Positions 10,025 through 44,899 of a stretch of DNA of 64,000 nucleotides are shown one piece after another. Location: the IMG/VR virus record IMGVR_UViG_3300037067_013742, positions 1 through 64,000 of that record; one strand, given 5' to 3'. The notes under the pieces were generated by a model. That model saw only the letters and a list, made by a program, of their open reading frames with translations. It ran no database searches and was not told the DNA's origin. The stretch is from a virus. Lineage: Duplodnaviria; Caudoviricetes. A program made the position numbers and the translations under genes. Position 1 is the stretch's first letter. Each line of letters opens with the position of its first letter.

Positions 10025-10099
10025 TGGTGCGTCATCAGGGACTTGAACCCTGCACTCTGGAGCTTGAATCCAGCGTCTTTGCCGGTAGACTAATGACGC
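10025..10099 (-). tRNA. tRNA-Leu(CAA), short variable arm
   Basis: CTGGA-TTCAAGC-TCCAG; A73-CCA. Confidence 0.75.
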
Positions 10100-10114
10100 A
10101 GTTAAGATTTCTGA

Positions 10115-10189
10115 TGCTGCTGGTCGGAGTCGAACCGACAACAAATTGATTTTAAATCAATCCTCTCTGCCAAATTGGAGCACAGCAGC
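10115..10189 (-). tRNA. tRNA-Leu(TAA), short variable arm
   Basis: ATTGA-TTTAAAA-TCAAT. Confidence 0.8.
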
Positions 10190-10190
10190 T

Positions 10191-10267
10191 TGGTGGCCAT
10201 GAACAGATTTGAACTGTTAACTTTTACCTTCTCGTGGTAGTGTCTCTGCCAATTGGACTACATGGCC
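10191..10267 (-). tRNA. tRNA-Leu(GAG), short arm, C33
   Basis: TACC-ACGAGAA-GGTA; CCA; overlapped by the HNH 3' end. Confidence 0.7.
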
Positions 10268-10951
10268 ATCTTTATTTAGCTTCCTTATAATATATTTTCT
10301 AATGGCGTTATCTGAAACTCCTAATCTCTTTCCTGTTGCTAGAAAAGAAGTTCTTTGCGTTTCTTCTATTATTTCCTCTACTGAGGGCCAGGAGATCTTT
10401 GGTGGTCTTTGCTTCATTGCACAGGAGCGGCATCGGACAGACCGCTCCGATACCTTTTCCCCGCAATCCTTACAGGTGCCACTCTTCCTATTTCTTCTTA
10501 GCCTATTCTCATTTGTCTTCTGTGTATGACAATTTGGACATAGAATTTCTAGATTATCTAGCTTGCTGTTTCTAAAATTGCCATCTTTGTGATGAATCTG
10601 TAGAGAGAGCGGTTTGCCCTGCCAAGTTTCTCCAGTCCTACAATTTGTGCAGATGAAGGCAATATTTAATTCCCGCAAGGCCCTCTCGAGATATTCTCTC
10701 TTAGGCCTGTCTTCATAGTTATCCGAAAGGATTTCTTCGGGCGTTTTTCTAGAGGGCGAAATAGCCCCCTTACGCCAACGCTGACTTGAAAAGTGGGAGG
10801 TATCTATCTTAAAGTGTCTAATCCTTTTTGCAATATATGACTGAGCTCCAGTGTCTGGCGTTAGCCCTAAGATTCGGGCTACTTCTCTAAAAGACCTTGA
10901 TGTTTCTACGATAGGGGAAAGAATTTCTATACTGTACTTGTGGTAAGTCAT
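10217..10951 (-). mobile_element. Free-standing HNH homing endonuclease
   Basis: LQIHHKDGNFRNSKLDNLEILCPNCH, Zn ribbon, C-terminal HTH. Confidence 0.85.
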
Positions 10952-10993
10952 ACCAATAAGTATAGCACAGGTTGGTTATTGGTTCGAGCTTAG

Positions 10994-11069
10994 TACCACG
11001 AGGGAGATTCGAACTCCCACGAACCAAGTTCTGAGCTTGGGGCCTCATACCAATTTGGACTACCGTGGC
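10994..11069 (-). tRNA. tRNA-Leu(CAG), short variable arm
   Basis: CCAAG-CTCAGAA-CTTGG. Confidence 0.8.
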
Positions 11070-38213: not shown

Positions 38214-39155
38214 CTATGAACCTTCTGGTGGGGTAGGAGATTTTTCTAGGTATTCTATGGCTGATTTAAGTCTAATTGGATCATCTAGGAAGTAGCCAAG
38301 ACCAATATTACAACGAGAGCAGAGTAGTCCTCTAACAATCCCACTTTTATGGCAGTGGTCAATAGCAAGTCGTCTGTCTTCTGTTGGTACGTTTTTGCAA
38401 ATAGCACAATGTCCACCTTGCTTCAAAAGCAGTTCTTCATATGCTTCGGTGGGGAGTTTGAATTTTTTCGCTCTTTGCTGCCTCTGGCTTTTTGCTTTAA
38501 AACGTGACGGGAGGATCCCTTTATTTGTTAGGATTTTAAGATAGGTAGATGAGATACCGGTCTTATCAACAATCTCATCTACTGGAAGATTTTTAGCCCA
38601 TAGCTGTTTTACGAGTTCTATATTTTCGGGTGGAATCTCTCTTATCCTATCCTTTTTTATCTTATGTCTTCGTAGTATTAATTGTATGTATGGGATACTA
38701 AGCTTTGTAAGTTCTGCAACCTCTTTTAATGTTTTGCCTTCCGCGTACAGTTTTAAGATAGTCGGGTCTTTAACTTCTAGATATTTTCTTCTGCTACGTC
38801 TAAGACATCCACATGATTTAGCATGACCATTTATTAGGGCATCACGTCTGATCTCTTTTTCGGCGCCACAGTCACATTTACATAGCCAGTAAGTATCTTT
38901 TCTCTTGCTATCGTATCCTCCAGATATAGCTTCTAATCTTCCACTTCTCCATCCGGGATAGGGAATCCCTTTATTTGGGAATAGGCAGCCGCAAGATTTT
39001 ACGCTGTTCTTTTTGAGGTAAGTACCTTTAGCTAGGTGAGTTTTTCCGCAGTCGCATAGACATTCCCAAAGTGTTTCTTTCTCTATAGATCCATGTCTTC
39101 TAACGACTACAAGCTTTCCAAATCTTTGTCCTGTTAAGTCTGTTTGTTGGGTCAT
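38214..39155 (-). mobile_element. Homing endonuclease: two DLTGQRFG-type DNA-binding repeats plus EndoVII-type nuclease
   Basis: W.C.CDCG x2; QGGHCAIC...IDHCH..G.VRGLLC..CN.GLG. Confidence 0.85.
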
Positions 39156-39881
39156 AGTAGATAATAACATGGGAGAGAGTATTTTGAGGTAGATGTAGAG
39201 AGTGGGTAGGCCATAAGTACTCCTCTCACTACTTATCCCAAACTTTTTGGTTTTCAGTCTGGACTCTAAAATACTGTAACCAATGGACTTTACAGGAAAT
39301 TCCTCTTCTCTTCTGTAGCCAATGCTTGTTATTTTTAACCCCCCGGACCCCCCAAGGGGGAGGGGGTTGGCCTCGCTCGCTAACGCTCGCTCGGCCCTTC
39401 GGGCCTGGCCATCGCTCGCGTTGCTCGCTCGGCCTGCGGCCTAAGAGTCCGAGGATTCGTTTCCCTCTTCGATCATGAAAGTGACCGTAGTGTCTAGGGA
39501 TTCTGGCTTCCCGTTGAGAAGAACGGTAGTGGGGTTTCCCTCGAAAGAAAGGCAGTCTCCGTCTTCTGCTGCCGCGCGGATTAGTTCGAAGAGGGTACAG
39601 GTGATAGTGGTTTGGGTGGTCTTCTTGATAGTCATCTCTACTCTTCTCCTCTGTGGTCTTTGTTTCTACAATGATTACGGTTCTTTGACTTCTTCTTATC
39701 GGGGATGATTGAGGGTCTGTTGCGGCCGTCATAGAAACCCTCTCGTACAGCTTCTTCTCTACGAATAGACCTCTCTATGAGGTAAATCTCCTCTGCTGTG
39801 ATCTTTAGGGGTTCCATCTTAGTTACCTTATTAGAATTACAGAGAATTCTAGTATAAGTTGAGGTTCTTGACCAGTTTGTC

Positions 39882-42911: not shown

Positions 42912-43495
42912 AGGGCAATACCGTGCTCATCTACGTTACCCTCGAACCGCCTGATCGTGTGGGTGTCATCTACAAGAGACCTGAGAAGAACTTCAGCCGT
43001 TGTCTCTCCCCGCTCGTAGGCTAGAGTCTCATAGCCCCAGATGTTGAAGAGGAAGCGTGCGTCTTCTTCGGTTGGCGGCGAATACAACATCTCTCAACCC
43101 TCCACTGTGAGTAGTCTCCAGATGGAGTTGTCATAGTCCATATAGAATGGATACCAGAGGTTGTTGTGCCAGTCACCTCCGATCGAGATGATAAGGAGTC
43201 CTACTGCCACCAGGATGGAGATGTGAGCGGCCGTCCAGATCCCCTCTTCCTTGAGGAATTCTTTTACGACGGGCCACCCACCCAGATAGGTGATCTGTCC
43301 AGTGATGAGGAGTGTAATGCCGGCGACAATAAGACCCATTGCTATGTAAAGCATCTTTATCCCCTTATAAGTCCAAGAGCTATTACTGCCATTACTATCG
43401 TAAGAACTACCGTCTCTACTCCTAGAATCATTATGGCTAGAATCCAGTGAGAAATCCATCTGATTAGTGAGTAGAACATGTTGGTCCTATTGTGT

Positions 43496-43548
43496 TGGTG
43501 CTGGCGACCAGATTTGAACTGGTAAGGGTTTCCCCATAAGTTCCTAGG
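43496..43548 (-). pseudogene. 3' half of a split tRNA-Leu
   Basis: CCTAGGA-ACTTA, variable arm GGGGAAACCC, T-arm, CGCCAGC-A-CCA. Confidence 0.8.
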
Positions 43549-43561
43549 TCTGTCTTCGATA

Positions 43562-43649
43562 TGGTGCCGCAGCCCGGATTCGAACCGGGACGGGATTACT
43601 CCCATGAGCTTCTAAGGCTCACATGTCTCGCCAGTTCCATCACTGCGGC
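43562..43649 (-). tRNA. tRNA-Leu(TAG), long variable arm
   Basis: TGAGC-CTTAGAA-GCTCA; CCA. Confidence 0.9.
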
Positions 43650-44133
43650 GTTTGTTTCTAGCTCCCCACGTCTCGGTTTGCTGATGGCAATTTGGACAGA
43701 GGAGTCTAAGGTTTTCTAATCTGTGGTCAGTATGAATGCCGTTCTTATGATCTACGTGGAGTCTTATCTTGTTACCTAACCAGGAATCAATCCCGCATAT
43801 CTCACAGCGTAGCATCCTGCCGATTTGGACTAGTCGTTTTAGTAGTCTCGATGGTTGATAGGAAGAGTTCTCTGAGAAGACCTCTTCATCTGGGACTGTG
43901 TTCTTTCTTACTGTTTGTCGGACGATCTCGGAGGTTTTCGCAGTCTTTCCCTTTGCCCAACCCTGACCTGTAAAGTGTTCGGTTGGTATTAGTAGGTTTC
44001 TGATCTTGCCATTTATATATCGGTAGTTTCCGCCGGTCCTTTTTAGACCAAGAGTATCTAGGACTTGTCCGATGGATGTGCAGTTTATTACTACTGGAGC
44101 TAGCACCTCGTGGGTATACTTGGATTGTCTCAT
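43612..44133 (-). mobile_element. HNH homing endonuclease (paralog of 10217-10951)
   Basis: LHVDHKNG...DHRLENLRLLCPNCH. Confidence 0.85.
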
Positions 44134-44160
44134 TCACTGATTATAGCATACACGCTTCGC

Positions 44161-44199
44161 TCCCTGAACTTACGTGTATGCCAATTCCACCACGCCAGC
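44161..44199 (-). pseudogene. 5' half of a split tRNA-Leu
   Basis: GCTGGCG-TG-GTGGAATTGGCATACAC-G-TAAGT pairs with the half at 43496-43548. Confidence 0.8.
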
Positions 44200-44899
44200 A
44201 GAAAGAAATGCCCTGCAGCATATCCAGGGCTTAGAGGAGGCTTTGGATCTCTTCGATTATTGTTTTTCTATTGGTTGGTAGTGCAATGAAGACCGGGATT
44301 CCTAGCTTGGAATATCTTCTAATAAGAATTTTATAGGGGTTTTAGCATCCGTAGATGGAGTGATACATTTCAATGAAGGGGTTAGGTGGGCAGCCTTCCT
44401 GATCCAGCAGGGTCTCCAACCTTTCCGACAGTTCGGTATGCCTGCTTACGTTCTTGGGCGTGGGGTTACATTCCTCCAGCTCGTACATTTCTCCATATGC
44501 CAAGACGGTATCTTGGTTGAATGCCCTCAGTAGGGCTTCTGGATTCTCTGGATAGAGTTCCTTAGCCAATGGGACAAGATCCATCTGATTTGCGGCGAGA
44601 TCTTTTTCTTCTGGGGTCATCTTATTTTCCTCAGAGGTTTCCGCAGTTTTCCACTTTTGGAAGGTGGTCATTGCTCTAGCCCTTCCGCATATCCTCTCGC
44701 GAAAACTCCGAGAGAGACTTCTGTCTCTTCGTATGTGTCGTAGTCCCATTCTTCGGCTATTGCATTGCTTACTCCAGAGCTAACCGAGTCGAGAATCTCT
44801 TCGATTCGGTCCTGTGTTTTTTCGTCGAGTTTGACCGCGATATATAGGACTCTCATCTGTATCTCCAGAGTTGTTTAGGTTAGTTATCTTCGAGGAGAG

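Follow-up and report, generated by a model that had tools for sequence, protein, structure and literature searches.

Homing endonuclease genes are thought to persist either by riding within a self-splicing intron or intein, or by residing beside the gene that they target. The locus described here appears to follow neither course. It lies in the first 64 kb (hereafter the window) of a 229,064-bp giant-phage record, IMGVR_UViG_3300037067_013742 of the IMG/VR database, where a leucine transfer RNA (tRNA-Leu) gene is split at its anticodon arm by an insert comprising an HNH homing-endonuclease gene and a second, complete tRNA-Leu gene. We consider it probable that this insert is a ribozyme-free homing-endonuclease cassette, carrying with it a spare copy of the gene that it interrupts. 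Our search of the literature turned up no account of a nuclease cassette lodged in a split tRNA and bringing a replacement for it.

Mobile group I introns of tRNA anticodon loops share with the window locus the same tRNA-Leu loop target, a homologous HNH passenger and the same order of parts, namely 5' exon, open reading frame (ORF), 3' module and 3' exon. In the window, however, the 3' module is a complete tRNA, not a ribozyme core, and the U(-1)/G(omega) boundaries of a group I intron are absent, implying that no step at the level of RNA can restore the interrupted gene. The cassette would thus replace the lost function instead of repairing it. Linkage between homing endonuclease genes and tRNAs is established for the GIY-YIG enzyme SegB of phages T4 and T6 (PMC2330249; PMC13096335). 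SegB-type genes resemble the HNH family of the window in lying among tRNAs, in having their own expression signals and in their expected spread, together with flanking tRNAs, by double-strand-break repair; most members of the HNH family match their free-standing layout. SegB-type genes are intergenic, however, whereas the window cassette lies inside a tRNA gene and would inactivate its target, and the tRNA linked to it would be more than a co-converted neighbour, being the replacement for that target.

Intron-less insertion of an endonuclease gene into a conserved gene, tolerated by the phage, has a parallel in mobE, which reportedly splits the ribonucleotide reductase gene of Aeromonas phage Aeh1 with preservation of function. 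In that system the protein fragments are said to reassemble, whereas nothing in the window suggests that the tRNA halves do so, and a whole spare gene is supplied. Some integrative elements, on entering a tRNA gene, contribute a copy of the tRNA segment that they displace; like the window cassette, they bring tRNA sequence that restores the function of the interrupted gene. The window insert differs from these elements in having no integrase or attachment site, in its location in the anticodon loop and not at the 3' end, and in carrying a complete second tRNA, not a matching fragment. Finally, the split and intron-containing tRNAs of archaea (Nanoarchaeum-type halves and bulge-helix-bulge introns) are likewise divided at the anticodon region, with complementary flanks. 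They contrast with the window locus, which has no canonical bulge-helix-bulge and no phage-encoded splicing endonuclease or RtcB that we could find, and whose sister cases show decay of the interrupted gene.

The interrupted gene and its insert

The original prediction, made from the sequence, described a tRNA nested in a tRNA, with an HNH gene between the halves of the outer gene and a different, complete tRNA-Leu(TAG) overlapping the 3' end of the HNH gene. This arrangement is real, and the predicted coordinates hold. The parts, in 5' to 3' order on the minus strand, with lengths in nucleotides (nt) or amino acids (aa), are as follows.

44168..44199 (-), 5' half of the outer tRNA-Leu, 32 nt: acceptor strand GCTGGCG, U8, D arm and anticodon-stem strand TAAGT
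44134..44167 (-), 5' spacer of the insert, 34 nt: an extended -10-like box, TG-C-TATAAT, at 44148-44140
43612..44133 (-), HNH homing-endonuclease gene: 173 aa, start codon ATG, Pfam HNH (PF01844)
43562..43649 (-), inner tRNA-Leu(UAG), 88 nt: class II, loop CUUAGAA, encoded CCA; called by ARAGORN
43549..43561 (-), 3' spacer of the insert, 13 nt: TATCGAAGACAGA, from the inner CCA to the outer loop remnant
43496..43548 (-), 3' part of the outer tRNA-Leu: loop remnant CCTAGGA, anticodon-stem strand ACTTA, variable arm, T arm, acceptor strand CGCCAGC, A73 and CCA

Together the two outer pieces make a class II tRNA, with 7/7 acceptor pairs and 5/5 anticodon-stem pairs, every one of them Watson-Crick. 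The D stem has three pairs and the D loop a GG; the 3' part has a 13-nt variable arm and the T arm ACCAG/TTCAAAT/CTGGT. None of the 20 stem pairs is broken, and on co-folding of the halves the anticodon helix lengthens to nine pairs; its two strands are 626 nt apart in the DNA. When the halves are joined in silico, ARAGORN calls a tRNA-Leu(tag) in registers 0-2, and each piece is also recovered as an orphan match, the first by a tRNA-Leu 5'-half profile (nhmmer E 0.0064) and the second by a 3'-half profile. ARAGORN in its intron mode (0-1000 nt) did not call the outer gene at the locus; its intron model expects the canonical 37/38 site. A loose split-tRNA finder applied to the 229-kb genome returned the window locus and one weak match that does not resemble a tRNA, compared with two matches in five shuffled genomes; neither the weak genomic match nor the shuffled ones had canonical loops or a CCA.

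The loop remnant of the 3' part supplies the anticodon TAG, with C33 and G37, and position 33 is C in every register that yields a leucine anticodon. tRNAs nearly always carry U at this position. This is the sole flaw of the window copy, and it makes the original statement that the halves show no decay a slight overstatement.

The final 38 nt of the HNH ORF lie within the inner tRNA, such that the HNH stop codon, TAG (43614-43612), doubles as the anticodon of the tRNA. The inner gene scores 51.3 bits against the Rfam tRNA model (gathering score 29; E 1e-9) and forms a canonical cloverleaf with U8, G18G19, U33, a TΨC loop and a discriminator base. It is the only tRNA-Leu(UAG) gene that ARAGORN finds in the 229-kb genome, in which CTA is the second commonest leucine codon, accounting for 24.7% of 4,696 leucine codons in 147 long ORFs. 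Its anticodon stem (TGAGC/GCTCA) differs from that of the outer gene (TAAGT/ACTTA), and the two tRNAs are only ~61% identical in a rough alignment in which the joined outer sequence had 7 extra nt. The inner tRNA is thus highly unlikely to be a recent duplicate, and reads from its sequence as a foreign replacement.

The HNH protein matches PF01844 with 23.4 bits (cut-off 21.4; E 6.8e-5) and is a short form, without the C-terminal zinc-ribbon/helix-turn-helix (Zn-ribbon/HTH) domain of some relatives. It retains the residues that are invariant in the family alignment (C110, C113, H129, N141 and C146-P-N-C-H150) and has the HNH catalytic motif with two CxxC zinc knuckles. Of the 16 leucine codons in its gene, nine are CTA, which is what the tRNA of the cassette reads. 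The TG-C-TATAAT box ends 6 nt before the start codon, as read from the sequence; a two-hexamer sigma-70 promoter scan did not flag it, its -35 element being weak. No Shine-Dalgarno sequence is visible upstream of the gene start, which suggests that the HNH message may be leaderless.

A nuclease family of phage tRNA arrays

Relatives of the window HNH (46-58% identity) were taken from IMG/VR, where the best 80 were fetched of at least 347 present in the first 594 pattern matches, and from metagenome contigs (the best 80 of at least 506, in the first 598 matches); their loci are labelled L002-L173. Among 150 distinct HNH ORFs, 136 have a tRNA within 1 kb, 100 have a tRNA whose start lies after the HNH motif and no more than 100 nt beyond the stop codon, and 43 overlap the next tRNA with their end. 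The first tRNA after the HNH motif is a tRNA-Leu in 62 of these 100, compared with 110 of the 507 remaining tRNAs at these loci (Fisher p 1e-14, relatedness among the loci being ignored). The association extends to phages that are cultured or have complete genomes: gp460 of Agrobacterium phage Atu_ph07 adjoins a tRNA-Leu(TAG), and an HNH gene overlaps a tRNA-Leu in Salmonella phage Arash and in the crAss-like cr126_1. The annotated hegA of phage T5 shows weak and partial homology (36% of the query; E 9e-10). The HNH family is confined almost wholly to phage tRNA arrays, with a preference for tRNA-Leu genes as neighbours or overlapping partners, and it is sporadic in its distribution and lies within or next to a conserved target gene. 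Its members are free-standing, intron-borne or nested, depending on the contig, with the free-standing form in the majority. The 43 overlaps suggest competition, on a single transcript, between expression of the nuclease and processing of the tRNA, because maturation of the overlapped tRNA by RNase P would sever the stop codon.

Four members of the family reside in group I introns, in each case in the anticodon loop of a phage tRNA-Leu, at U34/A35.

L137:1106-1938, group I intron with HNH in tRNA-Leu(UAG), above the Rfam gathering score
L148:94-930, group I intron with HNH in tRNA-Leu(UAG), above the Rfam gathering score
L050:1389-2236, group I intron with HNH in tRNA-Leu(UAA)
L055:116-874 (-), group I intron with HNH in tRNA-Leu(UAA), HNH antisense

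The order in L137 is 5' exon, HNH ORF, ribozyme core (~190 nt) and 3' exon, and the core of these intron loci stands where the window insert has its inner tRNA. Group I introns do, then, occur in phage tRNA genes, contrary to a 2014 review (PMC3984707), which placed every phage intron known at that time in a protein-coding gene, even though phages have many tRNA genes. These true tRNA-Leu introns, the association of the HNH with tRNA-Leu and the standing of the inner tRNA as sole tRNA-Leu(UAG) all go beyond the original prediction. The HNH ORF of L050 (1490-1990) is broken by TGA codons alone, at positions where its relatives have tryptophan; this phage probably reads TGA as tryptophan.

The ribozyme-less layout of the window, in the order 5' half, HNH, complete inner tRNA, short spacer and 3' half, recurs in four further, unrelated contigs.

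L004, nested case with the inner tRNA-Leu(UAG) in frame inside a 270-codon HNH ORF
L115, nested case with the HNH antisense
L129, nested case with a class-I tRNA-Leu(CAG) as inner tRNA
L157, nested case with a tRNA-Leu(GAG) as inner tRNA

A short spacer is found in L115, L129 and L157 at the place equivalent to the 3' spacer of the window. In all five cases the cassette lies between the anticodon-stem strands of a class II tRNA with a tRNA-Leu-like D loop, and the outer acceptor stem is still paired. The outer anticodon stem keeps 5/5 pairs in the window, L004 and L115, 4/5 in L129 and 2/5 in L157, and the outer anticodon reads leucine in the window, L004 and L129 and is unreadable in L115 and L157. 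The register of insertion varies, the anticodon lying in the 3' piece in the window and in the 5' piece in L129, and being split 34/35 in L004. The five cases also differ in their outer tRNAs, their inner tRNAs and the orientation of the HNH gene. On a quick tree the nested HNHs are scattered, with non-nested sequences as their nearest relatives: that of the window falls with L002 and that of L115 with L109 (97% support), while L157 lies across a 95% branch. It is likely that the nested cases arose independently. Since the state of their anticodon stems runs from fully paired to disrupted, the outer gene appears to be unmaintained and to decay, and the pattern fits repeated insertion followed by decay, not a spliced gene that is maintained. 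The four unrelated contigs, with their graded anticodon stems, lend support to the original suggestion that the insertion is recent; judged from these other loci, the window copy is probably a young one.

Other members keep parts of the arrangement. All that three loci (L009, L005 and L107) retain is an orphan 5' half, which immediately precedes the HNH gene. The tRNA downstream of the HNH in L122 has a 3' acceptor strand that makes 7/7 pairs with the orphan 5' half, against 5/7 with the 5' end of the same tRNA, implying that this tRNA is chimeric, its 5' part borne by the element and its 3' part native; both L122 and L009 resemble the pattern of integrative elements, in which an element-borne 5' part is fused to a native 3' part. 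Although L135 has both an inner tRNA-Leu(TAG) and an orphan 5' half, no convincing outer 3' half was found, and it was rejected as a nested case. In L002 (2992-3783) and L004 (2983-3777) a complete tRNA-Leu(UAG), of 86 and 85 nt respectively, lies within an HNH frame that is open throughout, between the HNH domain and the Zn-ribbon/HTH domain. These embedded tRNAs have GC in place of GG in the D loop and TTGGAGT in place of a TTCGA-type T loop, changes that look like a swapped 19:56 tertiary pair.

The window itself holds a paralogue of the HNH (10217-10951, minus strand), 33% identical and 244 aa long, which has a Zn-ribbon/HTH domain added at its C-terminus. It sits between tRNA-Leu(CAG), at 10993-11069, and tRNA-Leu(GAG), at 10191-10267, and its ORF ends inside the latter. 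Boxes similar to that of the nested gene precede this 10.9-kb paralogue, with TGTGCTATACT 7 nt upstream of its ATG, and full TTGAC(A/T)-17-(-10) promoters precede the genes of L004 and L135. ARAGORN finds 28 tRNA genes in the window, 27 of them clustered in an array at 8.5-15.7 kb. The array tRNAs with the leucine anticodons CAA, TAA, GAG and CAG (10025-11069, minus strand) are only 75-77 nt long, and thus do not have the long variable arm of a normal bacterial tRNA-Leu. In this they are unlike the inner and outer tRNA-Leu(UAG) at 43.5 kb, both of which are normal class II. Outside the window, at 205081-205153 (minus strand), ARAGORN calls a tRNA with the anticodon TTA, which would read the UAA stop codon and is possibly a suppressor tRNA of this phage.

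Origin of the nested cassette

How could a nuclease gene inside a tRNA gene be tolerated if the tRNA is not spliced? We propose that the HNH protein, through its putative nuclease activity, cleaves tRNA-Leu genes within the anticodon arm or close to it, and that double-strand-break repair then copies the cassette into the cut. The target tRNA would be lost, and the tRNA-Leu(UAG) of the cassette would take over its function, itself presumably remaining uncut owing to its different anticodon stem. Insertion would be cheap for the phage, even without splicing, because the carried tRNA supplies the function that is lost. The spare would be needed, given that no other tRNA-Leu(UAG) gene was found in the 229 kb and that CTA makes up about a quarter of the leucine codons. 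The outer halves would be a non-functional relic. Their intact appearance would reflect a recent insertion, as well as the entry of every homing event into a fresh, intact target, and they could double as homology arms for recombination. The HNH gene would be expressed from its own promoter-like box, and maturation of the overlapping tRNA by RNase P, in removing the HNH stop codon, may limit expression of the nuclease. The first ribozyme-less copy may have come about by recombination of an intron-borne HNH with a free-standing HNH-tRNA pair, a route that would explain the forms seen in L009 and L122, or else by illegitimate capture.

Several points weigh against this proposal. The intactness of all 20 outer stem pairs is predicted also by the idea that the halves are functional, and there is very little flanking homology by which the cassette could enter a break. 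No target-site duplication or microhomology above chance is present at the junctions of the window, nor at those of L129 or L157. The nested cases were judged with an in-house split-tRNA finder and by eye, without a calibrated tRNA model, and the family tree comes from a quick search, on ~160 columns, in which many of the forks lack support. Furthermore, no close relative of the window phage was found, and thus no uninterrupted allele to prove the insertion: a megablast search of 50,697 phage records with 3 kb of sequence and a search of IMG/VR with the upstream 135-aa ORF gave no close relative, and searches for the exact 32-nt outer 5' half in IMG/VR and for the exact 28-nt T-arm/acceptor sequence in metagenome contigs gave neither a close relative nor an uninterrupted allele.

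The search for uninterrupted alleles that the original prediction had suggested thus yielded none at the locus. A degenerate pattern gave a single match of this sort, L093, an unrelated AT-rich phage contig with an uninterrupted tRNA-Leu(TAG) that has the same anticodon stem, a nearly identical variable arm and the loop CTTAGAA. In the nested cases with junction repeats, the insert of L115 (minus strand) is flanked by a 9-nt direct repeat, TTTGTTGTT, a length reached in 13 of 2000 shuffles, and the junctions of L004 have an 8-nt repeat, AGTTTAAA (89 of 2000 shuffles); across the nested cases the repeats follow no consistent rule. The insert shows no signal of foreign composition, its GC content of 0.47 falling within the range of the genome (0.454, standard deviation 0.047). 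Similarity among the tRNAs was uninformative as to co-inheritance of HNH and tRNA, the best tRNA-Leu matches in the set all being 57-73% alike. A search with a 318-aa ORF of the window (38214-39170, minus strand) likewise gave no close relative of the phage, and this ORF was ruled out as a synteny anchor, being a widely scattered endonuclease-like gene. It has an HNH-like motif, LAIDHCHK, and 182 partial relatives across unrelated viral contigs, and is probably another mobile endonuclease gene.

The alternative that survives best is that illegitimate or homeologous recombination between tRNA-Leu genes, possibly stimulated by any nuclease, placed a neighbouring HNH-tRNA pair in the gene as a by-product, with no site targeting and no selective logic. 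The HNH-bearing arrays are full of orphan tRNA halves and chimeras, as this would predict, the insertion registers vary between the nested cases, and SegB reportedly promotes the amplification of segments within tRNA regions (PMC13096335). We nevertheless regard it as unlikely. At least five apparently independent cases all fall between the anticodon-stem strands of a class II tRNA with a Leu-like D loop, the same family occupies the same site as the passenger of a group I intron, and its association with tRNA-Leu is strong.

Is the outer tRNA still made? The original prediction had raised the possibility of a two-piece or re-ligated RNA, in which host RNase P and 3' trimming enzymes would free the inner tRNA, and the flanks, paired through the acceptor and the extended anticodon helix, would be resealed by a ligase or would work as a two-piece tRNA. 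If true, this would be a protein-processed, tRNA-guided intron in a bacteriophage; to our knowledge no such splicing route is known in bacteria. All the outer stems are intact in the window, and the anticodon helix can be extended to nine pairs across the junction, both of which favour this idea. The RNase P cut at the inner tRNA, however, would leave ~520 nt of HNH message on the 5' half. Co-folding of the junction gives a 9-bp helix, then bulges of 1 nt and 2 nt, and then 3 bp, in place of the 3-4-3 arrangement of a bulge-helix-bulge. Neither tRNA-splicing endonuclease (PF01974; EndA) nor RtcB (PF01139) was found in the 229-kb phage genome, although the controls for these searches worked. 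The loop has C33, the anticodon stems of sister cases are broken (2/5 pairs in L157, 4/5 in L129), the HNH is antisense in L115, and the inner tRNA-Leu(UAG) would make a second one superfluous. Taken with the lack of any ribozyme or splice signature, described below, these points tell against the suggestion, and we think it very improbable that the outer tRNA is still assembled.

A third possibility is that the insert is a self-splicing intron, of group I or some other kind, with a core too divergent, or too entangled with the ORF and inner tRNA, to be recognised by the models. Homologous HNHs do lie in real group I introns at the same site in L137, L148, L050 and L055, and the Rfam model missed two of these, L050 and L055, when they were inside a larger, 19.5-kb batch. 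An Rfam scan limited to 43000-44700, at E<=10, gave only the inner tRNA and no intron. Such a scan has power, since Intron_gpI scores 60.1 bits in L137 and 20 bits in L055. An nhmmer profile built from the four ribozyme cores matches just those four loci, with a non-significant match in L150 (E 9.5), and finds nothing at 43-44 kb of the genome; IC3 core motifs are present in L050 and L055 and missing from the window insert and from L004. Outside the ORF and the inner tRNA the insert has only 34 nt and 13 nt to spare, compared with the ~190-nt core of L137. Published criteria for group I splice sites call for U(-1) and G(omega) (10.1101/2020.01.27.920355), and were applied here to registers that would give back a 7-nt anticodon loop. 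The intron boundaries of L137, L050 and L055 are all CTT/...G/A, whereas none of the eight splice registers read at the window junctions has both U(-1) and G(omega). The original finding of no bulge-helix-bulge or group I core is thus borne out by co-folding, Rfam, core profile and motif searches alike. We conclude that the insert is not a recognisable intron, and that a hidden one is most improbable.

The least credible explanation is a chimeric read join between two metagenome tRNA-Leu loci, for although tRNA genes are repeats of the kind that confuse assemblers, the sequence at both junctions is unique, the halves are perfectly complementary to each other at a distance of 626 nt, and the same architecture is seen in independent assemblies from different projects (L004, L115, L129 and L157).

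Implications for nucleases and phage tRNA genes

If the insert is indeed a homing-endonuclease cassette with a spare tRNA, the window locus and its relatives would represent a third mode of persistence for homing endonuclease genes, in which the target gene is broken and a spare is brought along. A single nuclease family is seen in three states at one kind of target, namely free-standing, riding in a ribozyme-bearing intron, and carrying a spare tRNA, and these three states in one family would offer a natural series for the assembly and dismantling of mobile introns. There is also a practical consequence for annotation: the broken outer genes will escape the pipelines, as may those HNH ORFs that extend into a tRNA. 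Phage tRNA arrays matter for codon supply and for escape from host defences that cut tRNAs (PMC13096335), and nucleases such as those of the HNH family appear to be a major force in reshaping them.

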